Assembly (NCBI RefSeq): GCF_030028105.1
Contig: NC_092371.1
Location: forward strand, 156,374,490 to 156,438,489
From: Mobula birostris
Taxonomy: Eukaryota
DNA length: 64,000 nucleotides
Reading direction: 5' to 3'
Shown here: piece by piece, positions 11,296-63,925 of the stretch
How the letters are laid out: every line of letters starts with the position of its first letter
Numbering within the stretch: position 1 is the stretch's first letter
Program-made: the position numbers and the translations under genes
The notes under the pieces: generated by a model
Told to the model about the DNA's origin: nothing
Databases searched by the model: none
What the model saw: the letters and a program-made list of their open reading frames with translations, nothing else

Positions 11296-11688
11296 CAGCA
11301 CCGAGCCTGGGCCAGGGCTTGGCGCAGTACAGCTCCACCCAGCTCAGCACATTTTATGCCCCTCACAGCCTAGTCAAGGGTGCAATGTAGCATCGTCCAT
11401 CTCTGCACAGGGCTCAGGGCAGCCCAACCCAGAACAGGACCACATACTGCACGGGGGCTTCCTGAAGCTAAACTGAAGCTCAACCCACATGTCAATGCCC
11501 AGAGTTACCAGCCGTCAAACTGTCAAAGAGAATGACATTCACATTCATAAGTAGTTAAAAAATACATACCATCAAAATTTTTAAATATGAACAAACATGA
11601 ATAAGGAATAACACATCAGGAAGGAAATCCATTTCAATCAATTCAATTAACATTTTAAGAAGGTACATTACCATATACTTACCCTCTT

Positions 11689-11907
11689 ACATAAAAGTTG
11701 CTGGTGAACACAGCAGGCCAGACAGCATCTCTAGGAAGAGGTGCAGTCGACGTTTCAGGCCGAGACCCTTCTGATGTCCTGACGAAGGGTCTCAGCCTGA
11801 AACGCCGACTGCACCTCTTCCTAGAGATGCTGCCTGGCCTGCTGCGTTCACCAGCAACTTTTATGTGTGTTGCTTGAATTTCCAGCACCTGCAGAATTCC
11901 TGTTGTT
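11689..11907 (+). mobile_element. Penelope-derived hairpin mini-element
   Basis: About 80-bp inverted arms. TSD tacttaccct(c/t)tt at 11676-11688 and 11908-11920. Hammerhead-like core at 11776-11811 with a mutated cleavage triplet (GCC). Confidence 0.88.
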
Positions 11908-13217
11908 TACTTACCCTTTTCAGTTTTGTCTGCCCTTCACTTCGGGAGAGGATCACAATCACAATTCCTTATCCAGTTACTGGGAACCTACGGAAGTGCA
12001 ACCCCCACCACTGGACTCCATGAGGAGACAACACTGGAGTACCATCAGGAAACCCCAGCAAATGGCTGTGTTGAGGTTCCAGAGCTAAACCATTGTGCAA
12101 TATTCCCAAACTTCCGCAGAGTCACAGACATAAACAGCACCAGTCAGGCAAGGAACTGCAGGCATGTCTGCAGACTGCTCCCCACAGTATCCCCATAATC
12201 CATAGACAGGTAATATAAAGGAATGCTATACATGTTCAAATTGTTGAAGAACACATTATTACATCTACATGTCTTGTGAAAAAAAGTTAACATAAACCAT
12301 TCACTATAATTGGTAACATTTTCGATCAGAACTTTTCCCACCACGTAGTCTCTTGCCTGGGGAAAAGCCTGCTCAAATGTGTGGTGGCCAGTAACCTACA
12401 AGGAGGCAGCCTTAATCCTGAACCTTATTCTCTGGAGATGGGAGTGAACAATGTGGGATCAGACCCATTCAGGGCCTAGGGTTAAGGACCAACACAGGAT
12501 ATGGTCATGAAATAATGCATGATGGGGTCAAGGAACTACCTGGGCTTGGAGTCCCACCCTTCTGTACTGTCCTGGTCTTCCTGTTTGCATTGGGTTGGGT
12601 ACACAGTTTAAGGCTCATTGTTCGACCCACAAGAAACCGCAAAGTATAAGCCAGACCTGAATTACTGAACTTTGTGTTTTCCTTGAGCTAAGACAGGGTT
12701 GTGCTTGAAAAGAGTTATCAGCCCCTGGTGTGTTCAGTCATCTTTAATGTGTTCTCTTTATCATTTCAACTTCATTCATGTAATCTGTGATAAACTACAC
12801 CAACAAGAAACCAGCACTTGCAACCCTATCTGTCTAACCCACTACCTGTTTCAGAGAACCAGCGAACTTCTGCTGGCAACTTAAGTTGGTAATAGTTAAT
12901 GAATTCATATCACATTCCTTCCCTCCATTTTAGGGATGATACTATTACAATTAATGGGGATAAGTATAGATAACACTCTGGAACAGGGGAAATGTTATCA
13001 GAAATTTAAAAAAGGTTTACAATTTACTTGGTTGCTTCTTTCCTTCTGAGTCCTCTACCAACTTGGACAGAGCTTGCATTGAAATTTAACTTCCATGATA
13101 TGAGACAACATATCCGCTACAAACAAATAAGTCAACCAAACCAACTCGACGGAAGTGCATCACGCGGACATAACCAAAATACATTTTTCAGTGTTGTTCC
13201 GATGCAGACCTACTAAC

Positions 13218-13846
13218 CTCTAAAGAACTCATGGACACTGTTGAACCTGTTTCACTCCTTGATAATGCAGTATTACTTTCATCAAGTTCTGAAACAATGA
13301 AGTTCTTTACAGCGGACCGCGGTTCATATGGTAAACTCTGTTTGTGTTCTTGTGTGGTGAGATGCTGATCTAAATTGAAACTGATGTGATCCATCACAGG
13401 TGCACTTGTATTAAAATGCATTAACCTATCATGTGGCATGCCTTCCATGCTGATGTTTAATTTGCTTTCATCTTTAGCGATAGGTTGGACACTTGCTGAG
13501 CCTCTTGGCATTACAATGTAGTCACTCTCCATCATCCTCTCCTGGGCCTGAGCCAACTCAGCGTCCCCAGCTCTGAGATTGTCATCAGTGCATAAATAAA
13601 CTGTCCGCCGTAGTTCACTGTTTTCCTTCTTTATACACTGCTCAGTCAATTCGTTCATTCCAATTGGCACATGCATCGTCGGCGGCTGCTGTATCAAAAC
13701 TTTGGAAATCATATTTCCTGGGAGGGTTGAAAAATTCATGCTTTTGGGGTTGATTCCTTTCTCTTCTTCATCGTCATTCAGCGAGATCCTCGATAGCGTT
13801 CCTGTAATAGTTGCAGCTCGGCAGCTCCCTATATCCTTGTGAAGGA
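13218..13846 (-). CDS. ADGRB3: ADGRB3 large cytoplasmic-tail exon ([30 protein letters not shown]...[13 protein letters not shown]...[14 protein letters not shown]...[15 protein letters not shown])
   Basis: 629 nt (2 nt + 209 codons). Acceptor tctttgacccacag|TC, donor GAG|gttagt. ORF 13188..13739 carries the BAI3-type motifs [20 protein letters not shown] and [14 protein letters not shown]. Confidence 0.97.
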
Positions 13847-14504
13847 CTGTGGGTCAAAGAATCATTCGTTAGAATTGAAAATTCAACAGCTGATAAATTA
13901 TTCTAATTGACCTTGTGCTTTGGTCAAATAAATTAACCATTCTGTCACACTGTGTTTCATTTTCTTTCACCAAGTCAATTTGGTATTTTTCTTCATTGAA
14001 GGCAATATGTCAACATAATGATTGTTAATACTTTATTGCAATCTCATAATTAGAATGTAACTGTGCCGTTTATGTGGCTTGTTTTTGCGATTATAACATA
14101 GGAAAATGGGGTTTGATAGCTGGGAAAAAAAATCAGATCTACCTCGTGGTCACATTAATCGATGATGTTTGATATAACGTTTGAGGTAAATTAAGATGGA
14201 CCATATTTATTCAAAGTACTGTACCACTCTCCAGCAATAATCCTTCAACAGTCAGTAGTTAAGAAAACAAGTAACACAGAACAGATTGACAAAACAAGAA
14301 ACTGAACAGGTGTTGTAGGCTGAATGTAAAAGGCAAGTGAAGTTCGTAGACTGGTACTACCACATCATGCCTTGCATCTCTGTAAAATACTTCTACAAGC
14401 TTTATTATTCAATTTTGATTAAAATTAAACTGTGCAGTTGTATTGCATTGGTACAGGTCCATACCAACCATACTAATTCCATAAAGTGAAGGCAGGAAAG
14501 ACTG

Positions 14505-15152
14505 CAGATACGTTTGCTGCGCCCTGTCTATCCTCTGGCTCCTCTATTGCCAGGGTGAGGCCAAAGGCAAGCTAGAGGAAGACCATCTCATATTTCTCCT
14601 GTGTTGTCTACAACGCAACGGTATGAGCATCGAATTGAATTGCCTGCATGCGCTCCGTTCCTTTCGCTCTCCATCTGATCCGTCCAGGTCCACCCATACA
14701 CACCTTTCTTTGCAAAACTACTCCCAAACCCACTCTCACATATTCTCTTTCCATATACCACCTGGTTCCATCAGCCTTTCACCCACATACTCAACCCTCT
14801 TGGTCCTTTGTCCCCTTCCTCACTGTTCCCATTTGCCCACCATTCCTCCCTTCTCTGGTTCCACTTATGGCCTTCCTTTCTTATTAGATTCCATAATCTA
14901 TGGTCTTTGTTGCCTCTACCTCCAGATTCTGTTGTTATCACCATCCTTCCTCCTTCCACTTGGCTCCATCTACCTATCAACTCTTCTTCACTCAGAAACA
15001 TCTACTGTTTACTTGCTTTTGTCTCACCCCTCCCCCTTGTCTCTTTACGTTGGCTTTCTCCTCTTTACCCTCTTAGTCCTGATGCAGGGTCTTAACCTGA
15101 AATGTTGAAAATCCATTCATCTTCTCCAGATGCTGCTTGACTTGCCAGCAGC
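14505..15152 (+). mobile_element. Old Penelope-like 3' fragment
   Basis: gccaaaggcaagctagaggaagaccatctcatattt (KLEEDHLIF), a pyrimidine-rich UTR, and a degenerate hammerhead motif gtcctgatgcagggtcttaacctgaaatgttga. Confidence 0.7.
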
Positions 15153-16276
15153 TTATTTTTTTTTTTGCAAAGTGTTACAAAGTGGAAATGGTGAGATGGG
15201 ATTATCTGATCACGATTGATTCCATAACATTGACCCCAAACTCCATGATATTTCAAAGAATGACAGTAAGCCTGACGCCGAAGATACAGAAGTCTACTGG
15301 AGTTCACAAAATCTCCTGTGTGCCCTCCCCCTTCCCACCTCCAACTATGAAATATCCCAACACTGTTGTTTTCTGGACCCTTCTCCTTTACTCTATGCAG
15401 CTATTTTTAAGTGTACAGACTTGAAAATGGAGTTAGTATCCTCACCAGTAATCACATCATTTGAAAGTTTGATGCACCACTTGCCTGACCCTCCTCATTG
15501 TTGCAGTGGTCATCCATTCCCTCTTTGGCCGTACCGTAAGGCAGCTATGGTTGTGTAAGGTCAGTCCTCACAGCCCTGGGACAACACTGCAGGAGTCCCA
15601 TGGTCAGTCCTAATCATTCCCTCTCCTCCAGAAATGTGAATGATCACTGAATAATCCAAAGTTATTTGTTCCAGTTTCCAGTCTTCAGAAAGCAATTCTA
15701 CCCACCCCTGCATGCAACAAGCCCAATTTACGGCCAGTTAAGTGGCAAGTCACATTTGTTCCCCATGGTTACCTCTAAAAGGAGAGTGTTGAACCTTCTA
15801 ATCTCGGCATTTAGTGGTGTTACCACCACTGAGTTCCACACCATATTTCTGAACATCTCCACTGACCAGAAACTCAACTGGAAAAGCCACATAAATGCCA
15901 TTACTGTACGGGAAGGTTGGAGGCTCAGCATCCTGCAGAGCGATTCACATCTCTCCGATGTCTTTCCAGCACCCAGCAGGCACAATAAAGGAACACAGTG
16001 CACGGGTCTCTACATTCCTACATGCTTTAGTAAGTGAAGAAGCCGGAACAAAACTGTGCTCTTGATCGGTCACTCATCCACTAACTAAATATTCAGCTCT
16101 TCCAGCATCAACAGAGTGGCTGCAGTATGTACCAACTTCAAAATGCACTGTAGCAACTCTCCAAGGCATCTCAGAGAAAAGATATTAAGCTTGCATCCTC
16201 TACTTCCTAAATGAACATTAGCAAGAGTGGTGGAAAGCTAAAATTAGCAAATTCTCTTCTCTTACACTTGGAAGTA

Positions 16277-16794
16277 CAGTTATTTTATTAGGCACACCTG
16301 TACACCAGCTCATTCATGCAAGTATCTACGCAGTCAATCACGTGGCAGCAACTTAGTGCATAAAAGCATGCAGACAAGGTCAAGAGGGTCAGTTGTTGTT
16401 CACACCAAACTCAGAATGGGGAAGAAATATGACTTAAGTGACTTTGATTGTGAATGATTGTAGGTGCCAGATGGGGTCCTTTGAGTATCTCAAAAACTGC
16501 TGATCTCCTGGGATAAACATGCACAATGTCCTCTGGAGTTTACAGAGAATGGTGTGAGTACCAGTTCTGTGGGCAAAAATGCTGTGTTAATAAGAGATGT
16601 TAGAGGATAACGGCCAGATTGGTTCAAGCTGACAGGAAGGCGACAGTAACTCGAATAACCATGCATTACAGCAGTGGTGTGCAGAACAGCATCTCTGAAT
16701 GCATAAACATCGAATCTTGAGGTGCATAGGCTAGAACAGCAGAAGACCACACCGGGGGTCCACTCTTGTATGTAATATAAGTGGCCACAGAGTG
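16277..16794 (+). mobile_element. Tc1-derived MITE (cactcagtggccactttattaggtac family), degenerate
   Basis: Internal similarity to 43443-43928 and 52561-53095; right TIR aagtggccacagagtg. Confidence 0.75.
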
Positions 16795-19284
16795 TCTATC
16801 CAAGTTCCTTCCTTGTCAGTGGATCTACATCTTGGACCTCAGTGTTATGCAAGTACTTTGCACTTGACTACACAGTTAACTGCTTCTGTCTCAGGGACAA
16901 TTAAAGAGGGGCAATAATTATTGGTCCTGTCAGATCAAATAATAATAAAGAATATGAACATCAGTGATATTTCTGGCATAAATCACTATGGCCATTGTAC
17001 AAGATGTTTTTGAAACAGTTGTAGTTAACAGTGAACCTAATATTAAAAGATGGAGGCTTTATATCCTCTTTGAACTTCAGAATTGTCTTGAGAACCTAGC
17101 TGTGCATTCAGCTGTTCATTTGATCTCTACATAAGGAAAAGATTCAATATGGGCATTAACTCATCCTTTGAAGGATGATGGGCAAATTATTCATAAACTT
17201 TCCAAGATGTGTATTCCAAAATACGAGTTTCTTCCTGAATGGCTAAACTATTAGGGGGAGTGAGAAACACCATCAAATATGATAAGTGAATTCAATCACT
17301 TAAAGCAAAAATTCTGTACATATATTGTCTAAAATGGCTCTCATTTCAACATGTGACACTGAAAAAAATACTCAACTAACTGATGAGCCCACATCACTAT
17401 GTGCATGGGTTAATTTTGTTTCATGTGACCAGAAGGCACTGTTCAAATGTATCTTAGCTGTGAATGACTTTAGATAATTGATTTATCCTGCATGCAGCAA
17501 TCAGACTGTGTGATATTTAATATCTCCTGCAGTGATGAAAAGCTTGTGCTCACTTGTTCTCCTGTGTGCAACTGCATAACCTAAAAGCAAATGTCGATTC
17601 TGCTATCTCACTTGCAGCATAAGTAGGTCACACAAGTCCTCATACCTGCTTTGCCATTTGATACATCATGGCTGACCTAATCTTGTCCTCAGCTTCGCAC
17701 TCCTGCCTTGCCTCTAACAACTAAAGTCCTAAAACAATGGTCTGGACCAAAAATCTAACTTCACTTGACTATCTGGCTTCTGCAGTCCTCTGGAATAGAG
17801 TTCTAGGCTTCCATTCCAAGCAGACAGAGTCTGAAGAATGAAGACCTGCATACCAATGCAAGTTAAAAGGCGTTGGGCAAGACCAATATTGGACAGTAGG
17901 AAAGCAGGTAATTGAGATAGCTTATTGTTAACATTAAAAGGAAGTATTGTCTGAGAATCAATGGAAACAGACCTGAATTTATTTCAGTAGAGTCATGAGG
18001 AATGAATAAATGTTTTGTCAATGGGAAATAATTCATATAAAAATATTAATAAAGTTAACACTTGAGGGCTTCTTAGTCGTTACGAGGCATAAAAATCAGA
18101 ACTGAACATTTTGGGAAATTTAATAAATTCAATTTGTGCTTGAGCATTTATGTAACTGGAATGTTTTAAAGAGGAACTGATTAATTGGTATATTTTATTA
18201 TCCTATTACCATGATGAGTTCACTCTATTTCTCATACTGACTTATAAGGTCCCTCCTGAAATAGGATGTTGGCTCAGCTTTTGTTGGCAGTTCCACAAGG
18301 AACTACGGGCATGGCTCAGTGAAGTACCAGTAAGCTTTGAGATCCCTGTGTAAATGTGGAAATCCCAAACTTCCTAGCCAAACTCTGCTGGCACTTGCTG
18401 GGTGGTGATCAGCTCTCGGACCCTGTGCCAAGTGAATAGCGATCACAGGATTGTAGTGAAGGAAAAGAAAAATATGGTATGAAACATTTTTTAACTTAAT
18501 GGTTTAATTGATTTTTAAAAAATAATTTTATTAACTAAAATCTTCATTATGATTTTTTTAAAATATTTAAGTTTTAGCTATTTGAAAAATATTGACAGCT
18601 TTAATTGCTAGCAAACTGAGACATGTTTTTCTCAAGTGTCCAAGGTTTCCAATGGAGTTGCTAGGCAGGGATTGCTCTGATCTTGCTGAACTTCTGAGAG
18701 GGTGACCTGTCATTGCATGAGGCAAGACACCAGCCTAACTTCATACCTGACAAGAACCACACTACTTCAACTTCACAGGCACACGTGAAATCTCTATTAT
18801 TCTTCCCAAAACAAAAGTGTGTGCTATATGTACTAAAAATAGTAAGTGTGTGAAAGGTATGAATTATTGCTGTATATCACTAGTTATATCAATCATCTTT
18901 TAAATAGCATGTTACTCAAAAAACACATAAATGACAGTTCTGACCTATCTACAAGTGCACTACAAGTATTCTCAATCCGCTTGAAGGTCACTAATTCCCA
19001 AGGGAGAAGCTGACAAGTGCTTTTAGCAAGGATGGGAGTTAGGAGAGCAGAATCAAAATGAAAGAATTTTTGACTCCCCTCTCTTGTGTTTACCTTCAGC
19101 ATGCACTCACAACTTGTGCTTGTCCGTGTCAAACCACCAATGCCAATAACATCGCTGACAACACTTTCCCATAACAACATTGCTTTGAGTTTGACCTTTG
19201 ACAGCTTGTTCTTCAACTCACCACCAAACATTCCACTCCATAATTTGAAAATATGCTTAGAAATTAAGAGCAGGAAAGATAGAT

Positions 19285-19349
19285 CAGGGGTTCCCAATGT
19301 CAGGTCTGCTGACCCCCTTCTTAATGGTAATGATTAATGGGAACCCCTG
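19285..19349. mobile_element. 65-bp hAT-Charlie-type MITE
   Basis: TIRs caggggttccca / tgggaacccctg; 8-bp TSD agatagat / atatagat. Confidence 0.8.
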
Positions 19350-19847
19350 ATATAGATAACAACAAATGAAAGGTGACTTCAAATATATATAAAAAATCCA
19401 AATACAAGCAACCGTTCTACATGGTTGTAACGGAGTCTGATTTTTTGAGGGCATCTTCTATTTATGTGCCCAGAACTCTGGCTGGATATAAATAATGTTT
19501 GATGACCTTAGAGTATCACAATAACTTACTTCCGTATATGACAAAAATGCACAACCCTCCAAGTACTCTATTCAACATTAAAAAGATTCTCAACATTAAA
19601 AGGATTAGCATCCATGGATGAAAGTAAACTATATTGTTGCTGGTGTGGTCAGGGTCGTAAACACAGCCTTTTTTATCCATTGAACTGAAAGTTTCCAACA
19701 TTTCCCTATTCAAACAGTGCAAAAGCCTCTGCCAGCTTGTGTCCACTTTGCAGGTTGGTAGGTAAACCAGCCACTATAAATTACACTTAGGAGAGCTGTA
19801 GAACTTGGGGAAATGATGGGAATGTAGGGAGCTTAAAACAGGATTTA

Positions 19848-21338: not shown

Positions 21339-21434
21339 TGTATAGAATTTGTGTAAATAGGTTCTTGATAGTCAGCACAGACTTTCTGCTTGTCTCTGTA
21401 CTCAGCTGTGTGCCAGTAAAATATGGTCCAAAAG

Positions 21435-21675
21435 TGGCAACAAGGTAACGTAGTGGTTGGAGTGACGTTATTACAACACCTGTGACCTAGGTACTTTCCT
21501 GACACCATCTGTACGGAGTTTGTACATTTTCTCTGTGACTGTGTGGGTTTCCTCTGGGTGCTCTGTTTTCCATCCACATTCTGAAGATGTTCAGATTAGC
21601 AGGTTAATTGGTCACGTGTAATTGGGTGATGCGGACTTGTTGGCCTGAAAAGGTCTGTTATCATGCCGTACCTCT
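21435..21675 (+). mobile_element. V-SINE
   Basis: tRNA-like head (gtagtggttg), V-domain ctgtacggagtttgtacatt...gggtttcctctgggtgctc, CR1-like tail. Confidence 0.7.
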
Positions 21676-23378: not shown

Positions 23379-23384
23379 TACCTT

Positions 23385-23860: not shown

Positions 23861-24167
23861 GATTGTTAACAGTTTTTGGTGACACCATTCGACTTGTATT
23901 TGGAGAGTCTGCTTTATTTTCAATCTTTGCTTTAATTTACAGAAAGCATCTTAAACAGGTTCATTGGATCTTTGCAAATAGACTATTTCCAATGTCCCTT
24001 TAATGTGGTAAATTGCACACTGGAGGAAGTGCTCTTTGCAAATTTGAAGTAATACAAGCCTACAGAATGGAAACAACAGGAATTCTGCAGATGCTGGAAA
24101 TTCAAGCAACACACATCATACTTGCTGGTGAACGCAGCAGGCCAGGCAGCATCTCTAGGAAGAGGTA

Positions 24168-24205
24168 CAGTCGACGTTTCAGGCCGAGACCCTTCGTCAG
24201 GACTA
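24168..24205 (-). ncRNA. Minimal type I hammerhead ribozyme motif, sense to the ADGRB3 pre-mRNA
   Basis: UAGUC-CUGACGA-AGG-GUCUCGG-CCU-GAAA-CG-UC/GACUG: conserved CUGANGA and GAAA boxes, stem I UAGUC:GACUG, stem II AGG:CCU, palindromic ACGU in place of stem III. Confidence 0.75.
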
Positions 24206-24519
24206 ACTGAAGGAAGAGTTAGTAAGAGATTTGAAAGTGGGAGGGGGAGGGGGAGATCTGAAATGATAGGAGAAGACAGGAAGGGGAGGGATGGAGCCAA
24301 GAGCTGGACAGGTGATTGGCAAAAGGGATACGAGAGGATCATGGGACAGGAGGTCCGGGAAGAAAGACAAGGGGAAGGGGAACCCAGAGGATGGGCAAGG
24401 CCTTGCCAATCACCTGTCCAGCTCTTGGCTCCATCACTCCCGCTCCTGTCTTCTCCTATCATTTTGGATCTCCCCCTCCCCCTCCCACTTTCAAATCTCT
24501 TACTAACTCTTCCTTCAGT

Positions 24520-24557
24520 TAGTCCTGACGAAGGGTCTCGGCCTGAAACGTCGACTG
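24520..24557 (+). ncRNA. Minimal type I hammerhead ribozyme motif (inverted copy)
   Basis: tagtcctgacgaagggtctcggcctgaaacgtcgactg, identical to the minus-strand copy. Confidence 0.75.
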
Positions 24558-26394
24558 TACCTCTTCCTAGAGATGCTACAGAATGGAACATTGCACGAGA
24601 TTCCAAGGGCTGTGCCTCTGAAGCATCTGAAGGATGGGTGGCAGGTGGGTAGATACCATCGTACGTAAAGAATAGAGAATCTTTTTCAAACTTGAACTAA
24701 GGGATTTTCACAAACACACTTGAAAGAAGAGGTGGGATCTCAATTGAAAGATGTACACCTAACACTACAATAGTACACGTGTGTGTTAGTGTGAGCTTTG
24801 TGTTCAAGTCTCAGTACACACATGAATGAGAGGACGAAAGTCTCACGATATACCTAATCAGCATCCTTGAACATTAACGGAGCCACATTTAAACTTTAAA
24901 GCATCATTGATTGTCAACAAGATGTGATCTGTTTCTATATCAAGTTTAAGTAGTGGTCCTTAATAAAGGTAAATAAATAAGAAGTAGTTTTACGGATAGA
25001 GCCAGAAGGAACAACAACAGAATGTAAATGCAGTGCTTCTGATCATGTCCTACTCACCCTCATAAACCAAATGCCATAGCTGCAGTGCAGACTACAAGAT
25101 TTCCTCTAAAGTCCGATCACTGTGACTGATGCAAGGTGCAGAATTGTTAATTGTTCCCCCTGAACCTAGCAAAGTTAAAGGTAGGCTGGTAAGCTCTGCT
25201 CCTAAAACTGTTCTCAATTACCTCCAACCAGAACATGCACAGGTGACCCGGCTTCCATGCACATCCCAAAGATGTGAAGATCTGTATGTTAACTAGTCCC
25301 TAGTGCAGGAATAATAGAATTTGGGGGAAGGGGGATAATGAAAATGAACAGAAAATTAAAAAAAAACTGAGAATAAAAAATTGGTTTAATTTAAATGGAT
25401 GATGGTCAGCACAGACTCAATGGGCTGAAGGGCCATTTTTTAATGACATATATCTCTATGACTCAATGAGTCTTGTTTGGAATTAGTGTATCCCCGGCAA
25501 CAGCCAGTGCCAATGTGTTTTCTCCAATAGAGTGGGAATTGCTATTGTTTTTGATGCAGGCGAGCTTCAACTTGTGACTTAAGCTCTTGCCCATTAAAAC
25601 CTAGTTTGCAGCCCTCCTCTGTATGGTCCCTCTGAGATGAAAAAATGAGGTATCAATGTCAACAGATTATCTGAAGAGCTAAGCTGCCCTCTTTTCTTTC
25701 AAGGTGAAGAATAAAGTTCTGAAGTTCCATCAGACTGATACCAATAATCCAAACTCTGGGAACAAAGATCCAAATTAATAACAAAATGAATGTTTCAAAG
25801 TCCTGAAAACCACACAGCTCAACCCATCTGTCAGCTCTGACTGCCTACTGGAGAAGAACGGAAAAGCTGGATCTGATATCTAAAATTTTGGTATAGAAAA
25901 AAGCATAGAGGTATAAAAGCATAGTTGTCAAAAAGGAAACGAATAACAGGGGGCCTGACAGTGGGGCAGTGGGGGAGTGGCGCGAGGGTGGTGGTCACAT
26001 GCAGCACATTTATCCCAAGACATACTTGCATATATCCCCTCCAGCCTGTAATGATTCTTTGTCCTGTGGGAGGTGTAGAATGGGCTACAGAACATTTGTT
26101 CAAATTAATACTGTCACAGGAGCTTCGTCCTTCAGAGTTAAGTAATGGTGCAGCTGTTTCATAGAAATAAGGTTCAGCACCCTGGAGTGCTAAAGCTCAG
26201 TAGCGCGAATGGGCACCTCCTCCTTGTGGATGGCTGAATAGAAAAAAAAAGGAACTAAAGGGATCAGGTAGCTGCAGTGGTTCCAATATTCTGAACTGAG
26301 AATCCCAGAGTGCAACTTCACATCTCATTCTTGTAAATAGTAATGAGCAATGGGTTAGCAATCTGTATCATTAGGAAAAAAAAATACTGTTCAG

Positions 26395-29120: not shown

Positions 29121-30724
29121 ACCAAACAAACCATAAAGTCACCCATTTATCTGACCTATATTTCTATATTCACTATCCTCCTATTCTTATACTCTTTGGA
29201 ATGGGAGAATAATGGGACACATTACTTTGCAAGTAATCCAGAGACCTTAGAGGTCCTGCTCTTTCATCTGCCATTTGGTTTAAGCATTTTGGTTTATTAT
29301 TGTACCAAGATGCAATGCAAAACTTGTCTTGCCTGCTGTTTATAGGCACATTACAGATCCATCATGACATAGTCCAATGAGCTAGAATAAGGTGAAACAG
29401 TAACAATGCAAAATAAAGCATAAAAGCTACCAAAAGTGCAGGTAACAGTAAAGTGCAAGGTCATAATGAGGTAGCTTGTGAGGTCAAAAGCCCATCCTAT
29501 CATTCAAGAGGTCTCATAAGAGTAGGATAATACAATTCAATGCACTGTGCAATGCTCTGATCTTTTGTAAGATTTCATCCTTCTTTTGACTCAAAACATT
29601 TGTTCTAGTATGGGCCACGAACTCTGACTATATACTCTCCTGCTTTGGAATCCCCTGCACCTTTTCTGCGACTTTGTTCACCCTGACAACAGAGAGGCAA
29701 CACCTTATACTGGATTTACACCTATTGCAGCAAAGCACCTCTCTCTTCAGTTCACTATCAAGTCCCCTGCTACTCATACACTCGACTCTTGGCTCCTTCC
29801 TGCTTGTGCAGCTGAGCTGGAAGGAATAGTGTATATATAAAAAAAAATTTAAAAATTACATAATTTGAAAAAGTACGAGTGCAAGATTAAAAATATGAAA
29901 AATCCATGTAAACACCCTCATGGATTGAAAAATGGAAGATACATTACGCTTCCAGCAAAAATAGTTATACTCCAGGGTACTTTTACTTTCTGTATACCTT
30001 GAACTTCACTGTGCGTACGTTGTTCCAAAGCAAATCACTAATTTATTTCTATTTTCCCACAGAATCTTTCAGTGTTAATTAACCCCATTACTGCAGATCC
30101 AACATATGCCAAAACCCACCACAGATTACTTAAATAAACCTCATCACTTCTAAATTGATATTATGACCTTCACCTCAAAAATGAGATATATACAGATTGA
30201 TATATATACTGCACATTTTTATCACTAATAATATAATTCAATTTCTATTTCAGATTGAAATCAATTTCTTTCCAAATACACCATGCAATGGTGGCCCATT
30301 AGAGACATAGATAACAATTTCATCTTTAGAAATTCATCCCTCGTAGTTACCCCAAACCCAATCCACTGTATTATATCCTATACTGCCTCTAAAATTTATT
30401 ACCTTACATTCAATGGAACTGAATTTCAGAGGCAGACCACATGCAGATGCGAGAAGTAATGAAATTAGTGCTACTTGGCAGGGATTAATTTCAAGACATG
30501 GCTTTGTAATTTTATCTTTTGGGACAACTGTCTTGATCCTCACAGTCTTGTTTAGGCTTTTTTTTAACTGCACAGCAAAGCTGCGCACTTGCACTGAATG
30601 GTCCACGTCAACAGCACAGAATGAAGTATATTTCCTTTCAGGAACAGCAAGCCTTCGCGCACTAACCCCAAGCTGATTTTGCACTTTTAAGACATTTAGC
30701 ACAAGTAAACAATCTAAATATCAG

Positions 30725-30918
30725 CAACATGCACAAATTGCTGGAGATCTCAGCAAGTCAGGCAGCATCTATGGAGGGGTATAAATATTTAACATTTCAG
30801 GCCAAGACCTTTCATCGACTGTTTATTCCACTCCATAGATACTGCCTGACTTGCTGAATGGCTCCAGTATTTACGTGTATTGCTCAAGATTTCCAGCATC
30901 TGCAGAATGTCTTGAATT
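30725..30918 (+). mobile_element. Older Penelope-derived hairpin mini-element
   Basis: Imperfect inverted arms; TSD taaatatcag at 30715-30724 and 30919-30928. Confidence 0.82.
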
Positions 30919-31439
30919 TAAATATCAGTCTTTACTACAATTTTCCAAAATCCACATTTCAAATATAATGTTAACTCCATAAAATAAACAAATAGTTTTA
31001 CATAAACACAATTTTTTCCTTACTCTCAAATTAGGATTGCTTTGGTTTATTATAAAATTCTTATAACATTTACTGAAGTAGACCTTCAATCTTCTCTAGA
31101 ATGAATTAAATTGCCGACAGTCCAACTATAAGCTCGAGAAAGATTGAGAATAGTATTCATCTCAAGGGTATTTGGCAACCAGCTTTCCCTTGCACTTCCT
31201 GCCACGTCAGACCTGTGTTACCCTGTTAACTGTGGTTCTGACAAAATAAATACATAAATATTTTTAGTTTCTTGACACATTTAACTGATGAATTTTTGGT
31301 ATTTTAAATGCTGCAATTTATTGTACTAAATTGACGAAAGTACTATGCTTACAAACTTCCAAATAATAATAGCCTGTGCTAAATCCTTTTCCATGCCTTC
31401 CATCAAGACAGTGCTAAATCCCTTCCATACCAGATAGTA

Positions 31440-33249: not shown

Positions 33250-33430
33250 ACCTCAAGAGATTCAGCTGATGCTGGAAATCTTGAGCAAAACGTGCTGAGG
33301 GACCTCAGAATGTCATGCAGCATCTATGGAGAGGAATAAACAGTCAACGTTTCAGACCAAGACCTTTCATCGTGACCGGAAAGGAAGTGGGAAGAAACCA
33401 GACTAAGAAGGGGGGATGAGCAGAAGGAGC
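33250..33430 (-). mobile_element. Penelope 3' terminus fragment with a degenerate hammerhead motif
   Basis: gatgctggaaatcttgagcaa...cagcatctatggagaggaataaacagtcaacgtttcagaccaagacctttcatc. Confidence 0.75.
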
Positions 33431-45814: not shown

Positions 45815-45946
45815 CACAAACAAGAGAAAATCTGTAGATGCTGGAAATCTGAGCAACACACACAAAATGCAGGACGAACTCAGCAGGCCAGGCAGCATCC
45901 ATGGAAAAAGTACAGTTGACGTTTCGGGCCAAAACCCTGGAGGACT
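45815..45946 (-). mobile_element. Penelope 3' terminus mini-insertion
   Basis: gatgctggaaatctgagcaacacacacaaaatgc...gtacagttgacgtttcgggccaaaaccctggaggact; stops at hammerhead stem I. Confidence 0.8.
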
Positions 45947-53589: not shown

Positions 53590-53771
53590 TGAAGAGAAAT
53601 AACCATCAACATTTCAGGCCAAAATCCTTCATTGGGATTGTCCCAAAGGGTCTTGGCCTGAAACATTGCCTGCTTATTCCTCTCCATAGATCCTGCTTGA
53701 CCTGCTGAATTCGTCCAGTATTTTGTGTGTGTTGCTTTGGATTTCCAGCATCTGCAGTCTCTCTTGTGTTT
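53590..53771 (+). mobile_element. Degenerate Penelope-derived hairpin
   Basis: Short inverted arm (caacatttcaggccaaaatccttc) facing aagggtcttggcctgaaacattg...tttccagcatctgcag. Confidence 0.72.
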
Positions 53772-54605: not shown

Positions 54606-54810
54606 AACACAAGATTCTGCAGATGCTAGAAATCCAGAGTAACACATACAAAATGATGGAGGAACTCAGCAGATCATGGAACTCAGCAGCTATGAAAAAG
54701 AATAAACAGTTGATGCTTTGGGGTGAGGCTGGAAAAGAAGGGGTAAGAACACAGCATCTTTCCACAGATGCTGCCTGACTGCTGAGTTCCTCCAGCATTT
54801 TATGTGTTTC
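54606..54810 (-). mobile_element. Degenerate Penelope-derived hairpin inserted in a Rex1-like 3' fragment
   Basis: acatacaaaatgatggaggaactcagcag ... ctgctgagttcctccagcattttatgtgt. Confidence 0.7.
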
Positions 54811-55436: not shown

Positions 55437-57597
55437 TGCAAACATGAGGAAATCTGCAGACTTCTATGTGTGTTGGTGGAAAGTAACACTCACAACACGC
55501 TGGAAGAACTCAGCAGGTCGGGCAGCATCCGTGGAAACGATCAGTCAACATTTTTGGCCGGAACCCTTCGTCAGGACTGTAGAGGGAAGGGGCAGAGGCC
55601 CTATAAAGACGGTGGGGGGAGAGTGGGAAGGAGAAGGCTGGTAGGTTCCAGGTGAAAAACCAGTAAGGGGAAAGATAAAGTGGGGGGGGGAAGGGGAAGC
55701 AGGGAGGTGATAGGCAGGAAAGGTGAAGAAGGAATAGGGGAAAACACAATGGGTAGAAGGAGGCGGAACCATGAGGGAGGTGATAGGCAGCTGGGGGAGG
55801 GGGCAGAGTGACATAGGGATAGAGGAAGGGAGGGGTGGGAATTACCAGAAGCTGGAGAATTCTATGTTCATACCATAGAAGACTACCTAGATGGTATATG
55901 AGGTGTTGCTCCTCCAACCTGAGTTTAGCCTCATCATGGCAGTAGAGGAGGCCATGTATGGACATATCTGAATGGGAGTGGGAAGCAGAGTTGAAGTGGG
56001 TGGCTACCGGGTGATCCTGTCTGTTTTGGCGGACGGAGCGGAGGTGCTCGACGAAGCGGTCCCCCAATCTGCGTCGGGTTTCACCGATGTAGAGGAGGCC
56101 GCACCGGGAGCACCGGATACAATAGATGCCCCAACAGACTCACAAGTGATGTGTTGCCTCACTCTGAAGGACTGCTTGGGACCCTGAATGGTGACAAGAG
56201 AGGAGGTGTAGGGACAGGTGTAGCACTTGCACTTACAGGGATAAGTGCCGGGCGGGAGATCCATGGGGAGGGACGTGTGAATCAGGGAGTCGTGGAGGGA
56301 CCGATCCCTGCGGAAAGCGGAGGGGGTGGAGAGGGAAGGATGTGCTTAGTGGTGGGGTCCTGTTGAAGGTAGCGGAAGTTGTGGAGGATAATGTGCTGGA
56401 TCCGGAGGCTGGTGGGGTGGTAGGTGAGGACAAGGGGAACTCCGTCCCTGTTGTGGTGGCGGGACGATGGGGTGAGGGCTGAAGTGCGGAAAATGGAGGA
56501 GATGCAGGTGAGGGCATCATTGATGACAGCAGAAGGGAAACCACGATCCTTAAAGAAAGAGGACATTTGCGATATCCTGGAATGGAAAACCTCATCCTCG
56601 GAGCAGATGCAGCGGAGACGGAGGAACTGGGAATAGGGAATGGCATTTTTGCATGTGGCGGGGTGGGAAGAGGTATAGTTGAGGTAGTTATGAGAGTCAG
56701 TGGGCTTGTAGAAGATGTCAGTGGACAGCCTGTCTCCAGAAATGGAGACAAAGAGGTCGAGAAAGGGGAGAGAAGTGTCTGAGATAGACCAAGTGAATTT
56801 GAGGGCTGGGTGGAAGTTAGAAGTAAAGTCGATGAAATTGACGAGCTCAGCATGGGTGCGGGAAGCAGCACCAATGTAGTCGTCAATCTACCGAAGGAAA
56901 AGTTCGGGAGCAGTACCAGAATAGGTTTGGAGCATAGACTGCTCCACATAATCAACGAAGAGGCAGGCATAGCTAGGGCCCATGCGAGTTCCCATAGCTA
57001 CACCCTTAGTCTGAAGAAAGTGGGAAGAGCCAAAAGAGAAGTTATTGAGTGTGAGAACCAGTTCCGCCAACCGGAGGAGGGTAGTGGTGGTGGGGAACTG
57101 GTGAGGTCTATTATCCAGAAAGCAGCGGAGGGCTTTGAGGCCTTCTTGATGGGGAATGGAGGTGTATAGGGATTGGACATCCATAGTGAAAATGAAGCGG
57201 TTGGGACTGGGGAACTGAAAGTTATTGAAGAGGTGGAGAGCATGGGATGTATCCCGGATGTAGGTGGGGAGGGACTGAACTAAGGGTGACAAAATGGAGT
57301 CCAGGTAGGCAGATACAAGTTCGGTGGGGCAGGAGCAGGCAGAAACTATGGGTCTACCGGGACAGTCAGGCTTGTGGATCTTGGGAGGAGGTAAAACCAA
57401 GCGTACGGCGTGTGGGAATTATGAGTTTAGCAGCTGAGGATGGAAGGTCTCCCAAGTTGATAAGGGCGGTGATGGTACGGGAGACAATGGTTTGATGTTT
57501 TTTGATGGGGTCCTGTTCCAGGGGTAAGTAAGAGGAGGTGTCAGAGAGCTGCCGTTTGGCCTCAGTGAGATAGAGGTCCGTCCGCCAGACTACTACA
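55437..57597 (-). mobile_element. 5'-truncated Penelope-like retrotransposon (RT + GIY-YIG endonuclease), frameshifted
   Basis: PKIHKPDCPGRPIVS...FTMDVQSLYTSIPH...QTKGVAMGTRMGPSYACLF (PLE RT) and GDRFVEHLRS...PVATHFN...RLEEQHLIYHLG (GIY-YIG). 3' UTR carries ctgacgaagggttccggccaaaaatgttgac, a hammerhead with GAAA mutated. Confidence 0.93.
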
Positions 57598-58592
57598 AGT
57601 ACTATCTCCTCTGCAGGGGAATCAAAATTTTGTGCTATACTGGCGGGGGGGGGGGGGAGAGGGGGTTGTGGTGATTACAGTTTATGAATAGTCACCAATT
57701 TAAAAAAAGAGTTGGGATATTTTTCTTTCTCTGAATAACCTATGGACAATGGATCCTGAAGAGGTGGGGCAAGCAGAGCTTTTGAGTATTTTTAAGGCAG
57801 GGATAGATAGATCCCTGATAAACAAGGTGACAAGATGCTACCAGGATAGGTAAGAATGCAGAGCTGAAGTTATTAGCTATTAGCTTGTTACATGGTGGAG
57901 CAGACTTGAAGGGTCAAATATCCTACTCTTGTTTCAAATTTGTATGTTTATATACATTCCTTACAATCTGAATTCTTGCTCAGTGAATTTCCAATGAAAT
58001 GTTAAACTGAGTTTCAGCTCAGATACAGATGAAAGATCCCATGGGGTTATTTCAAAACTGTCAAGGTGATGTCCTGACTAAGAAGACCAGACAGAGATTG
58101 TTGCTTGATAAATCCATGTGGATAATGTACTCTTGCAATTTGGTGATGTACTTTCTAGGTAACAACAGTAAATATACAGTACTGATTGTGAAGTCATTTG
58201 ATTTGTCCAAGGAGTCCATCAGAACTGTGTTTCTGATGGTTTGAGAGTTGTGTTTTGCATTTCAGATCCTGGTTATCCATATTATTACACCATAGAAAGC
58301 ATTCGATCTGGATGTAGAACAGCTTGGTATGGCAACTGCCCTGCATTTGATCACAAGAAACTGCAGAGAGTTGTGGATGCAGCTCAGCACCTCACAATTC
58401 AGCTTTCCCTCCGTGACTCTGTGTGTAAGTCTCACAGCTTCAGCAAAGCAAGCAGCATAATCAAGATCCCACCCGCCTCACACTTTCTCCCTTCTCCTTC
58501 CTCCCACTGGGCAGAAAGATACAAAAGCCATCTATCAGAATGCTGCATATGCAGTGCCTCCAGCTTTGTCAAAGACCCCTCCCAACCTTTCC

Positions 58593-58691
58593 AAGCAACA
58601 CACACAAAATGCTGGAGAAACTCTGCAGGCCAGGAAGAATCTATGGAAAAAAGTACAGTTGACGTTTCAGGCTGAAACCTTTCAGCAGGAC
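58593..58691 (-). mobile_element. Penelope 3' terminus mini-insertion inside Rex1-like fragments
   Basis: TSD cca(a/t)cctttcc at 58582-58592 and 58693-58703; stops at hammerhead stem I (aggac). Confidence 0.82.
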
Positions 58692-59549
58692 ACCATCCTT
58701 TCCACGATCTCTTTGTCAGGCAGAAGTCACTGCAGCATAAGAACCAGAACTGCAAGGCAAGGTAACAGCTTCCTTCCTGAGACTGTTAGACTTCTAAACG
58801 CCCAACACATATGTAAACCCTGTCTGAATGCCCTGCTTCTCCCTCCCTCCACTCCCCAACTCACACACTCTCTGGTCACTTTTTATCATTTACTGCTGCT
58901 GTTTCACACATGTATACAGCTGCTGGTTTTACTATAATAGTGCCAATAATATTGTACAGTCTTACATTAACATGCACCTCGCACTTTATGTCAACCTGTC
59001 AACCTTCAGGCCATGCCCTTCAGGGACTTGTGCTAATATTATTTTGTGACTGTATGTGCTGGATCATAACTATATCACACTGTGTGACCTGACAATCTAC
59101 AATTATCATTTTGAACTTTATCATTTACCTTCACTGCAATTTTTCTGTGGCTTTTCCACTTTATTCTGCGTTGTTATTGTTTTAACCTGTTCCACCTCAA
59201 TGCAACGCATAATGACTTTGATCTTGATGAACAGTATGCAAGACAAGCTTTTCACTGTACCTTCGTGAAAGTGACAATAATAAACCAAACCTATACCGCT
59301 GTCTATCCACTGCTAATGTTTTCATTCCAATTCCCTGTTTTGCTTGGCTGGGAGGTGAGGTGGATGACAATTTAATTTACTTTCACTGTCCTTGCAGGGA
59401 GCAGCAGCAGCCATGGCACAGCATCTTACTACCTCATGGGCCGCACACGTGGATACAGGAGATGGAATCATTCCCCGTCTCCTGCATGGGGCTGTGTATT
59501 TCAACATGCATCCTCCCGGTGAATGTACTGCAGGTATCACCAACACAAT

Positions 59550-59780
59550 GGGGCAGCACAGTAGCGTAGTAGTTAGCTCAAAGCTATTTACAGCACCAGC
59601 GTTCAATTTCTGCCGCTGTCTGTAAGGAGGTTGTACTTTCTCCCCCATGACTGCGTTGGTTTCCTCCAGGTACTCCAGTTTGTTCCCACATTCCCAAGCC
59701 GTACTGATGGGTTAGTAGGTCAATTGGTCAACCTGGGTGTATTTGGGCAGCATGCACTTATTGGGCCAGAAGGGCCTGCT
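59550..59780 (+). mobile_element. V-SINE
   Basis: gggcagcacagtagcgtagtagttagc...gctgtctgtaaggaggttgtac...ggtttcctccaggtactcc...gggccagaagggcctg. Confidence 0.78.
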
Positions 59781-59781
59781 A

Positions 59782-62700
59782 ATAGAACATAGAAATCTAC
59801 AGCATATTAAAGGCCCTTCAGCCCACAATGCTGTGCCGACCATGTAACCTACTCTAGAAACTGCCTAGTATTTCCCTACCACATAGCCCTCTATTTTTCT
59901 AAGTTGTACGTACCTATCTAAGAGTCTCTTAAAAGATCACTAGACACTAGAATACCACAGCACAGTACAGGCCCTTCGGCCCGTGATGTTGTATCGACCC
60001 ATATATTCCTTAAAAAAAAGTACTAAACCCACACTACCCCGTAACCCTCTATTTTTCTTTCATCCATGTGCCTGTCCAAGAGGCTCTTAAATACCCCTAA
60101 TGTTTTAGCCTCCACCACCACCCCTGGCAAGTCATTCCAGGCACCCACAACCCTCGGTGTAAAAAACTTACCCCTGACGTCTCCCCTAAACTTTGTACAT
60201 ATACCCTCTGGTGTTTGCTATTCGTGCCCTGGGAATCAGGTACTGGCAATCCACCCTATCTATGCCTCTCATAATCTTGTAGACCTCTACCAAGTCCCCT
60301 CTCATCCTTCTACGCTCCAAAGGGAAAAGTCCCAGCTCTGCTAACCTTGCCTCATAAGACTTGTTTTCCAATCCAGGCAACATCCTGGTAAACCTCCTCT
60401 GCACCCTCTCCATAGCTTCCACATCCTTCCTATAATGAGGTGACCAGAACTGAACACAATACTCTACGTGTGGTCTCACCAGAGATTTGTAGAGTTGCAA
60501 CATGACCTCTCTACTCTTGAACTCAATCCCCCTATTAACGAAGCCTAGCGTCCCATAGGCCTTCTTAACTATCCTATCAACCTGTGCAGTGACCTTGAGG
60601 GATGTATGGATTTGAACCCCAAGGTCCCTCTGTTCATCCACACTCTTAAGTAACCGACCATTAACCCTGTACTCAGCCTTCTGGTTTGTCCTTCCAAAAT
60701 GCATCACCTCACACTTATCTGGATTGAACTCTATCTGCCATTCTGCCTCTTCATCCAGGTCACTTATAAAAAATCACAAAGAGCAGGGGTCCCAGGACAG
60801 ATCCTTGCGGCACTCCACTAGTCACCAACCTCCAGGCAGAATACTTTCCTTCCACTACTACCCTCTGCTTTCTTCCTGGAAGCCAATTTTTTATTCAAAC
60901 AGCCAAGGTTCCACTGATCCCATGCCTCATGACTTTCTGGATGAGTCTCTTGTGGGGGACCTTCTGAGATGCCTTGCTAAAATCCATGTAGACCACATCT
61001 ACCGCCCTACCCTCATTAATTTCTTTTGTTACCTCTTCAAAAAACTCAATTAGGCTCGTGAGGCACAACCTTCCCTTCACAAAGTCATGTTGACTATCCT
61101 TGAGTAGGCTGTACTACTCCAAATGCTCATAGATCCTATCCGTAAGAATCCTTTCCAATAGTTTGCAGACCACTGGTGTAAGACTCACTGGTCTATAATT
61201 CCCAGGATTCTCCCTATTACCTTTTTTAAACAAGGGAACTACATTTGCCATTCTCCAATCCTCTGGCACCTCCCATGCAGCCAAAGAGGATTCAAAGATC
61301 ATAGCTACTGCTCCAGCGATCTCTTCTCTCACTTCCCACAACAACCTGGGGTATATCACATCCAGCTCTGGGCACTTATCAATCTTGATGTTTTTAAGAA
61401 GATCCAACACTTCTTCCTTAATCTCCACATTGTCCAGTACACAGGCCTGTTCTATTTCAACCTTACTCCGATCAAGGTCCTTTTAACTTGTGAATACTGA
61501 AGCAAAGTATTCTTTTAGAACCTCCCCAACCTCCTCTACCTCCAGGCACATGTTGCCTTCTTTATCCTTTAGCGGCCCCACCTTCATTCTTGCCATCCTT
61601 CTGTTCTTCACATACTCATAGAACGCCTTGGCGTTCTCCTTAATCCTACATGCCAAGGCCTTCTCCCTTCGAGTTCTCCAAATCCTTACTTAAGCTCCTT
61701 CCTGGCTACCCTATATTTCTCATGAGCCCCTCCTGCTTCCTGCTTCTTATATCTAACATATGCTTCCATCTTCCTCTTGGTGAGTTGCCTCACATGTTTC
61801 GTCAGCCACGGTTCCCTTTTCCTACCATTTTTTCTTTGTCTCAGTGGGACAAACCTATCCTGAACCCAGGATCCTGTTGTATCCGCTTCTAGTACCATTG
61901 CTGGCAGTGCATTCCATGCACCCACCACTCTCTGTGAAAAAATTACCTGACATCTCCTCAGTACCTACTTCCAAGCACCTTAAAACTATGCCCCTTGTGT
62001 TAGCCATTTCAGCCCTGGAAAAAGCCTCTGGCTATCCACACGATCAATGCCTCTCATCATCTTATACACCTTTATCAGGTCACTTCTCATCCTCTGTCGC
62101 TTCAAGGAAAAAAGGCCAAGTTCACTCAACCCATTCTCATAAGGCATGCTCTCCAATCAAAGCAACATCCTTATAAATCTCCTCTGCACTCTCTTTATAG
62201 TATACACATCCTTCCTGTAGTGAGGTGACCAGAACTGAACATAGTACTCCAAGTGGGGTCTAACTAAGGTCCTATACAGCTGTAACATTACCTCATGGGT
62301 CTTGAACTCAATCCCATGGTTGATGAAGGCCAACACACCACACGACTTAACAACACTCTCAAGCTGTGCGGCAGCTTTGAGTGCCCTTTGGACATGGACC
62401 CCAAGATCTCGTTGATCCTCCACACTGGCAAGAGTCTTACCATTAACATAATATTCTGTCTTCAAATCTGAACGACCAAAATGAACCACCACACTTTTTG
62501 GGGTTGAACTCTATCTGCCACTTCTCAGCCCAGTTCTGGTCACCACCCTCCATGCAGAATATGAACTATCTCCAACCACCCTTTGTCTTCTGTGGGCAAC
62601 CCAATTATGAATCCACAAAGCAAGGTCTCCTTGGATCCTATGCTTCATTACTTTCTGAATGAGCCTCACATGGGAAACCTTACAAAATCCATATAAAATC

Positions 62701-63925
62701 AAATGCCTTACTGAAACCCATATACACTACATCCGCAAACACAAGGAATCTGCAGATGCTGGAAATTCAAGCAACACACATCAAAGTTGCTGGTGAACGC
62801 AGCAGGCCAGGCAGCATCTCTAGGAAGAGGTACAGTCTTCCTAAGATGCTGCCTGGACTGCTGCGTTCCCCAGCAACCTTGATGTGTGTTGCTTACACTA
62901 TATCCACTGCTCTACCTTCACCGATGTGTTTAGTTACATCCTCAAAGAATTCAATCAGACTTGTAAGGCACGACCTGCCCTTGACAAAACCATGCTGACT
63001 ATCCTTAATCAGATTATGTCTCTCCAAATGCTCATAAACCTGCCTCTCAACATCTTCTCCAACAACTTGTCCACTACTGAAGTAAGACTCACTCGTCTAT
63101 AATTTCCTGGGTTACCTCTACTCCCTTTCTTGAACAAGGGAACAACGTGTGCAACCTTTCAATCCACTGGTATTTCTCCCATCCCTATTGATGATGCGAA
63201 GATCATCACCAGAGGCTCAGCAATCTCCTCCCTCGCCTTGCACAGTAGCTTGGGGTATATCTTGACCGGTCTCGGCAACTTATCTAACCTAATACCTTTC
63301 ATAAGCTCCAGCACATTCTCTTTCTTAACGTCTATACACTCAAGTGTTTCAGTCCACTGTAAGTCATCCCCACAGTTGCCAAGATCCTTTTCACTGGTGA
63401 ATACCGACGCAAACCATTCATTAAGTACCTCCGCTGCCCCCTCCGACTCCATACACGTTTCCATTCTCGCTCCTGATTGGTCCTATTGTCACACAGCTCA
63501 TCCTCTTGCTTTTCACATACTTGTAAAATGCCTTAGTGTTTTCCTTAATCCTGCTCACCAAGGCCTTCTCCTGGCCTTCTAGCTCTCCTAATTTCATTCT
63601 TGAGCTCCTTCCTGGCACCCTTGTAATTTTCTAGAGCTCTAGCAATATCTAGTTTCTTGCACCTTCCGTAAGCTTTTATTTTCTTCTTAACTAGATTTTC
63701 CACAACCTTTATACACCAAGGTTCTTTTACCCTTCCATCCTTCCCCTGCCTCAATGGAACATACCTATGCAGAACACCATGTAAATGATCCCCGAACATT
63801 TGCCATATTTCTGCCATGCATTTCCCTGAGAACATCTGCTCCCAATTTAGATTCCCAAGTTCCTGCCTAATAGCATCATATTCCCCCTACCCTAATAAAT
63901 GTTTTCCCAAATTGTCTGCTCCTAT
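59782..63925 (-). mobile_element. Stack of nested minus-strand CR1 LINEs (tail 59782-59936; inner copy about 59937-61870; outer body about 61875-63925)
   Basis: Two CR1 tails (tagaaca..., tagacactagaat) and two sets of ORF2 motifs (WRMANVVPLFKKG...PGNYRPVSLT at 61114-61428; REEIAEPLVMIF at 63159-63464; two LVRPHxEY motifs). Confidence 0.88.
62737..62893 (-). mobile_element. Penelope-derived hairpin inserted into CR1
   Basis: About 55-bp inverted arms; TSD tacacta(c/t)atcc(g/a)c at 62723-62736 and 62894-62907. Confidence 0.87.

Follow-up and report, generated by a model that had tools for sequence, protein, structure and literature searches.

A window of 64,000 nucleotides of the Mobula birostris genome (contig NC_092371.1, positions 156,374,490 to 156,438,489 of the forward strand) hosts short copies of the 3' terminus of a Penelope retrotransposon, most of them paired head-to-head as hairpins around a hammerhead ribozyme motif. 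The genome is 4.0 Gb long and contains many CR1-like and Tc1-like repeats. An initial annotation of the window had listed eight such copies, and had proposed that ribozyme cleavage, or stalling of the reverse transcriptase (RT) at the ribozyme fold, sets the boundaries of a MITE-like or retrozyme-like class of non-autonomous hairpins. The copies are instead 5'-truncated, often head-to-head insertions of Neptune-type Penelope elements. They are ordinary insertions with a real, and apparently unreported, junction signature, in that their 5' ends favor the hammerhead's front edge. The annotation had thus found the edge while being wrong about its cause and about the class of the copies.

We number the terminus from the A of AGTCC in the 5' strand of stem I, which is base 0, so that the predicted scissile bond is C31/G32. 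Statements on cited papers refer throughout to the portions of their text that were available. All eight listed copies were found in the window, and their identity as Penelope 3' termini, five of their target site duplications (TSDs, recovered by script or by eye) and the placement of the hammerhead motif and its cut site were all borne out. At least two old copies had been overlooked. The copies, and the longer element that accompanies them, are as follows:

11676..11917: family-A hairpin insertion, made of an antisense arm (short 3' end, to +9), a filler of 4 nucleotides (nt) and a sense arm that begins at +1 (11776) and extends to the tail end
11676-11685/11908-11917: its 10-bp TSD, found by script
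11776..11810 (+): minimal type I hammerhead motif, as described in PMC4209133, with only base 0 missing; the predicted cut separates 11806 from 11807
24060..24588: family-A hairpin with longer arms, joined at -196/-118, away from the hammerhead; base 0 of the sense arm at 24521
24060-24072/24576-24588: its 13-bp TSD, found by eye
30715..30928: older-subfamily hairpin, with a sense arm from 28-32 and an antisense arm ending at +6..+10
30715-30724/30919-30928: its 10-bp TSD
45815..45946 (-): single non-inverted arm ending at about 0, with a degenerate core and no reliable TSD
53590..53771: old hairpin with both arms ending at about 0/+1 and the 3' part of the left arm lost; a search for a TSD found none
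54606..54810: old hairpin joined near +15/+41; again, no TSD was found when looked for
58593-58691, within 58582..58704 (-): non-inverted stub from +1 to the short 3' end
58582-58593/58693-58704: its 12-bp TSD with 1 mismatch, found by eye
62723..62905: family-A hairpin, with a tailed arm reaching 32-34 and a short-ended arm from 41
62723-62734/62894-62905: its 12-bp TSD with 1 mismatch, of which the script found a 7-bp exact core
3345..3520 (-): further old terminus copy, previously unlisted, continuing through the hammerhead into the 3' untranslated region (UTR)
33255..33420 (-): further old terminus copy, previously unlisted, continuing through the hammerhead
55437..57697 (-): Penelope element of subfamily D, 5'-truncated and frameshifted, with a pyrimidine-rich 3' UTR and a tail
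~56924-57379: RT domain of this element (Pfam PF00078, E 1.4e-6)
~55906-56136: GIY-YIG domain of this element (Pfam PF01541, E 4.4e-6)
55578: base 0 of its hammerhead; the element has a possible 9-bp low-complexity TSD

Four of these copies start at stem I, as had been annotated: at +1 in 11776, 58691 and 53640, and at 0 in the degenerate copy near 45946. The core of the copy starting at 53640 is partly deleted, and its partner arm ends near 0. Two other starts, at 30817 and 62837, had been described as lying exactly at the cleavage site. They are not fixed at base 32, because the first junction carries 4 nt of microhomology (30813-30816) and may start anywhere in 28-32, and the second carries 2 nt and may start anywhere in 32-34. 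The junctions of the copies at 24073 and 54606 fall at neither stem I nor the cut site. As to the motif itself, the core boxes, stems I and II and a palindromic remnant of stem III can be read from the sequence. Rfam returned no hammerhead match, only hairpin look-alikes below threshold, and the single-strand fold prediction retains stem I and not the catalytic stem II.

The element at 55437-57697, which had been named as the partner type, does show that type, with RT followed by a C-terminal GIY-YIG domain in broken frames. It cannot itself supply the protein, because it is frameshifted and 5'-truncated. Elsewhere in the genome, one family-A copy (L217) retains one nearly open frame, and family A encodes a Zn-finger-like C-x3-C-x2-C motif within the RT-endonuclease linker, before GIY-YIG. 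Because of this cysteine motif, we assign the family by its sequence to the Neptune type as described in PMC8557442, an assignment that does not separate Neptune from Nematis by tree. The first ATG of the long open reading frame (ORF) lies at +165/+170. Exact matches to anchors placed 3' of the hammerhead number 42,099 for family A (one 35-mer), 46,600 for the older families and 5,936 for family D. In 10 of 30 loci that retain the N-terminal part of the ORF, the terminus also lies directly upstream, as a partial tandem or 5' pseudo-long terminal repeat (pseudo-LTR). Family D includes a large subfamily (835 long copies match) with C35 opposite A0, where the end of stem I is mismatched and AG is kept.

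Junctions and hairpins across the genome

To map the 5' ends of the arms on a family-A reference, we fetched approximately 2 Mb around anchors that were all picked on the 3' side. The anchor misses any arm that ends beyond +51, five of the sampled arms are the window's own, and the loci fetched by junction pattern (L241-L360) were excluded from the unbiased counts. Among the 267 unbiased family-A arms, 50 end at -1..+4, with a peak around 40 times the upstream rate, and 42 end at 0..3, compared with 1.3 per base across the 35 bases that flank this stretch (Poisson P ~3e-24). Expressed as the hazard of ending per base, the signal is 0.053 at 0..3, 0.011 at 5..13 and 0.003 at 33..51, and upstream it settles at 0.0012-0.0015 (-36..-900). 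When counted by insertion event, 51 out of 212 have an arm at -1..+4, or about one in four.

The same edge is detectable in hairpins (32 of 102), in non-inverted copies (19 of 110) and in three subfamilies besides family A; the older subfamilies have 23 of 103 arms at -2..+4. A genome-wide filter for the range -4..+3 returned 4,023 junctions of family A, and the 100 listed, when tallied by hand, show a steep drop upstream of -1 (8 at +3, 21 at +2, 21 at +1, 25 at 0, 13 at -1, 3 at -2, 4 at -3 and 5 at -4). For family D, the 100 listed out of 402 distribute as 14, 11, 44, 17, 6, 6, 1 and 1 over the same positions. The edge is therefore real and is not a product of inversion, and the clustering at the 5' strand of stem I that the initial annotation had noticed is strong and genome-wide. 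Two kinds of edge copies deserve mention on their own. In one, telomeric repeats lie right at the 5' junction, either as filler (L233) or as a run near a contig end (C5:257950-258005). In the other, the edge copy is fused to sense ORF-internal or 3' UTR sequence (L326 (-) ~2153 and L196 (+) ~3673), through either a template jump or a nested insertion.

Hairpins account for 102 of the 212 insertion events, and TSDs have a median length of 14 bp (n=42). The 3' ends of the arms form two modes, at +96..104 and +131..136, with a minor mode at +127. These modes are distributed one per arm, since in 90 of 93 hairpins one arm is short-ended and the other is tailed, and each of the two is the one reaching further 5' equally often (25 to 25). 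Both arms are therefore complementary DNAs (cDNAs), each begun at a 3' start site of the element, and the 'long (sense) arm' of the initial annotation is a misreading. The two arms of a hairpin agree at diagnostic site 37 in 72 of 80 cases and at site 23 in 41 of 47.

Short tandem joins also occur. In 142 cases genome-wide a sense piece of the hammerhead directly precedes base 0 or +1, and 96 joins form longer micro-tandems, compared with more than 42,000 arms. At L351 ~1440-1560 and C28:24417584, three hammerhead units follow each other, the first of which ends at C31 and is joined to base 0. Small arrays with units of 40-62 nt, each a whole hammerhead starting at 0, -3 or -4, are found at C4:27795118-27795464, C4:178772334, C6:156663011, C6:200493994, C32:22526166 and on C34, C36 and C38. 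These arrays are possible births of non-LTR retrozymes.

The presence of such arrays could indicate that the hairpins are a non-autonomous family, similar to miniature inverted-repeat transposable elements (MITEs) or retrozymes and copied as a unit, as had been suggested. So could one hairpin loop with a near-identical 13-nt filler at two loci (L070:955-977 and L345:1490-1512) that differ in site, flanks, TSDs and tail variants. We consider unit copying very unlikely. The 102 hairpins have 97 distinct junctions, the shared filler occurs only at those two loci genome-wide, and edge arms and long arms have the same subfamily mix (T37/C37 34/16 and 75/35, respectively). Moreover, the arms always begin at the 3' start sites of the element, and tandem joins are in the low hundreds compared with tens of thousands of copies, with none among the window loci, which is not the tandem repetition of retrozymes. 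Since the hairpins do not amplify as units, they do not form a MITE or retrozyme family.

Causes of the edge

The explanation that we favor, and regard as moderately probable, is that the front edge of the hammerhead collects 5' ends because it is where the template RNA begins, and RT, having initiated within the terminal repeat, runs off the end of this RNA. The RNA 5' end is probably a transcription start. The protein would nick both target strands and prime one cDNA on each, one per start site, as it does in vitro in Anolis Poseidon. On long RNAs the cDNAs would die off slowly, at approximately 0.0013 per base, whereas on RNAs starting at 0 they would run off after around 100 or 135 bases, resembling minus-strand strong-stop DNA. 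Afterwards, the cDNA ends would be linked either among themselves or to target DNA by way of microhomology or filler. The hammerhead would lie at the front of the RNA and stay mostly uncut during copying; it probably cuts a minority of molecules, releasing a 32-base 5' fragment onto which the enzyme may sometimes jump.

Around base 0, families A and D fit a pyrimidine-A-N-W-pyrimidine initiator consensus. Run-off from an RNA starting at 0 is favored because, when a complete 0..30/31 unit precedes another base 0, it starts at the edge in 13 of 13 cases and in none continues into the upstream UTR, and because 20 of 26 micro-tandem events (hand tally) have a G as the untemplated base beside the start. 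Such a G resembles the cap-derived G of full-length L1 (PMC11702581). We also considered G at -1 as a sign of the cap in ordinary junctions and rejected it, as it partly reflects micro-duplications and partner arms and shows no excess.

Several observations weigh against a transcript starting at the edge. Arm ends form a shoulder at -2..-35 (0.006-0.009 per base), and about three quarters of the arms that reach +4 continue past the edge. The G is in no excess beside the edge in fillers (7 of 28, compared with 17 of 76 elsewhere), and is found in 5 of 14 short inserts of the longer micro-tandems (hand tally). In the 10 full-length copies that carry an upstream repeat, this repeat never begins at the edge; its start lies 383 to more than 696 bases upstream in 6 of them and at +26..+82 in the other 4. 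Longer RNAs therefore exist and supply the full-length copies. Finally, bases 0-1 are also a conserved AG following a pyrimidine tract, as well as the end of stem I. Because base 0 is initiator-like, stem I end and AG at once, position alone does not separate the competing explanations.

The main rival is that structure makes the edge, either because a 5'-to-3' exonuclease trims longer RNA down to the folded, protein-bound hammerhead or because RT on a long RNA stops once past stem I. We regard this as unlikely, although it deserves serious weight. The edge falls just where stem I ends on its outer side, and it lies slightly further upstream in subfamilies where C-1 can pair with G36, long RNAs clearly exist, and the excess of G is inconsistent. 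However, in family D with C35 base 0 cannot pair, yet 40 out of 100 edge copies keep A0 (19 of these 40 keep C-1). The predicted fold of the family-A majority also loses stem I when 30 upstream bases are present (pair probability 0.00, compared with 0.6-0.9 for an RNA starting at 0), as the upstream pyrimidines pair with the core; stem I forms if the RNA starts at 0 or -4. In the mutated D copy of the window this predicted masking is not seen. Stalling of RT upon meeting the fold, as put forward in the initial annotation, is disfavored because RT would come to the 3' strand of stem I before the 5' strand, and few ends lie there (33-51). It is quite improbable that the edge is instead the 3' splice site of an intron of the element, with spliced RNA or a by-product of splicing as template. 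In every subfamily a pyrimidine tract and AG lie directly before +2, family A has a branch-point-like motif as well, and in D. virilis the 5' end of helix I is where the element's intron stops (PMC4209133). Nevertheless, none of 117 arms ending at -5..+4 is joined to upstream element sequence ending at a splice donor, no donor covaries with stem I in 22 aligned D copies, ends show no peak at the branch-point position, and long copies retain the putative intron. Four RNA contigs, a kind of record that does not reveal starts, were aligned and gave neither a usable RNA start nor a GT-AG joint among the matches listed.

Two further explanations concern cleavage and end joining, and the evidence on them is intertwined. 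That hammerhead cleavage fixes the 5' boundary at G32, as originally claimed, is highly improbable. Five of the 267 arms do end at 32, slightly over background (P 0.01; 0.04 without the window's own copy), and the G32-junction pattern has 183 matches genome-wide, compared with 2,472 for the +1 pattern, although the two filters differ (pass rates of ~0.19 and 0.42) and the +1 pattern also catches other subfamilies. All five arms, however, belong to hairpins, three of them with 2-4 nt of microhomology, while none of 110 non-inverted arms ends at 28..36 and none of 103 older-subfamily arms at 32. Genome-wide, the 532 filtered junctions at 26..36, compared with the 4,023 at the edge, are spread with no pile at 32. 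Among the matches listed, around six in ten G32 rows have a partner arm that ends at 0 and is joined through a 4-nt microhomology of stem I; the 30 G32 loci that were fetched include 25 hairpins and 12 cases of this very 0/32 join, the commonest single G32 class. Microhomology joining thus does explain most of the cleavage-site class, an outcome of the 5' junction mapping that the initial annotation had itself set against cleavage. It had also asked whether microhomology explains the clustering as a whole. That the edge arises only from end joining at stem I microhomology, or from snap-back of the cDNA, is hardly credible and is refuted by several lines of evidence. The edge is equally strong in the non-inverted copies and recurs in other subfamilies, and microhomology of at least 2 nt is not enriched there (8 of 31 junctions, compared with 40 of 121 elsewhere). 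Self-complementarity is no higher at 0..3 than at neighboring positions. In a first sample, short copies seemed to have a base 0 complementary to base 35 (G in 18 of 30, compared with A in 95 of 100 long copies), and this failed in a larger set of 100 (A 40, G 24, T 17, C 19), where approximately 14 of the 24 G are explained by microhomology or templated inserts.

Whether the ribozyme cuts at all is a separate question, and the micro-tandems bear on it. Family A has no microhomology between C31 and base 0, and of its 18 blunt joins to base 0, 9 have C31 as their end point, out of 13 possible positions (binomial P 2e-6; hand tally with 3 ambiguous rows left out). Across families, the unit ends at C31 in 24 of ~88 micro-tandem events, and another 6 have T30 plus G at this place. 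On the other side, ~23 of the ~88 units end at 37-38 and ~6 locus groups at 52, where no cut is expected. Bases 28-31 are reverse-complementary to bases 6-9, so that microhomology acting in two steps, by way of a partner arm, could also yield the C31 join. In Anolis, RNA reads neither begin nor end at the cut site, and insertion in vitro is independent of hammerhead cleavage (PMC11167929). On balance, cleavage in vivo at C31/G32 is suggested, with the scales roughly level, and the units running from the edge to the scissile bond are a possible fossil of it.

A broader reading, which we hold only tentatively and find on the whole doubtful, links these observations into one ribonucleoprotein cycle. 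A capped transcript would begin at the first base of the hammerhead, which would fold only without the pyrimidine tract, and a protein dimer would prime both cut strands from two internal sites, giving strong-stop-like cDNAs. The ribozyme would cut in the germ line, and RT would jump end-to-end onto the 32-base 5' fragment, a jump that would build pseudo-LTRs and seed retrozyme arrays. On this reading, the genome would hold a fossil record of the cycle. Both the regeneration of pseudo-LTRs in Penelope and the role of hammerheads are described as open questions (PMC2377424, PMC8557442), and tens of thousands of dead copies here yield predictions at the level of single bases: that the RNA starts at the edge, that each arm has one start site, that most templates are uncut, and that there is a 32-base fragment whose end is the scissile bond. 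For annotation, such hairpins should be filed as Penelope insertions rather than as MITEs or microRNA precursors.

Genomic setting and known systems

Other features of the window include a Tc1/Sleeping Beauty-like transposon with 336-nt inverted repeats (5440-6946) and a more distant hammerhead-bearing terminus of another Penelope-like family (~15030-15130, +). An open frame at 13188-13853 (-), for which the Pfam search returned no match, resembles the C-terminal exon of a BAI-type adhesion G protein-coupled receptor, and the repeats may therefore adjoin or sit inside a host gene.

The family agrees in most respects with the endonuclease-bearing Penelope-like elements (PLEs) of the Neptune clade (Craig et al. 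2021, PMC8557442; Arkhipova et al. 2013, PMC3846280). Like these, it has RT with a C-terminal GIY-YIG domain, the cysteine linker motif, partial tandems with pseudo-LTRs, heavy 5' truncation, inverted 5' copies, a tail of 30-40 bp at one end only, TSDs and solo repeats. The restriction of the tail to one arm, the TSDs and the inverted 5' copies are the marks of endonuclease-bearing PLEs. Unlike in the available parts of these accounts, here there are a preferred 5' end at the hammerhead edge and a near-strict pairing of short and tailed arms. A literature search that covered few subscription journals and did not extend to figure S2 of PMC11167929 found no paper on a 5' edge at the hammerhead.

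The minimal metazoan PLE hammerheads of Cervera and De la Pena (2014, PMC4209133) share the type I core, the short stem I and the palindromic remnant of stem III, and they likewise lie in the terminal repeat, with many solo motifs and opposite-strand pairs. In their model cleavage and circularization define the template, whereas the genomic copies found here begin 32 bases ahead of the cut site. Non-LTR retrozymes (Li, Clavereau and Pollet 2026, 10.64898/2026.07.22.740005) resemble our copies in their origin from a PLE terminal repeat and their type I hammerhead, and the rare small tandem arrays have the form of their two-unit arrangement. Unlike retrozymes, the bulk of the copies are not tandem repeats but monomers, which are dispersed, and pairs in head-to-head arrangement, and nothing points to their propagating independently. 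A further parallel is R2 with its 5' hepatitis delta virus-like ribozyme (PMC3774820), where the ribozyme also lies at the RNA 5' end and RT run-off, untemplated bases and variable 5' joins are found. In R2 the cleavage site defines the 5' junction, and here it does not, as the lack of non-inverted and older arms ending at the cut site shows.

A mechanistic counterpart is Poseidon PAc of Anolis, studied in vitro (Frangieh et al. 2024, PMC11167929). Poseidon belongs to a different clade and its ORF starts inside the hammerhead, and not at +165/+170 as here, and the available part of that account describes neither a genomic 5' edge nor a trace of cleavage. It does report two internal initiation sites flanking the tail, as in our family. 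Both strands are cut and extended, and the length of the product is set by the 5' end of the RNA, which matches the model proposed here.

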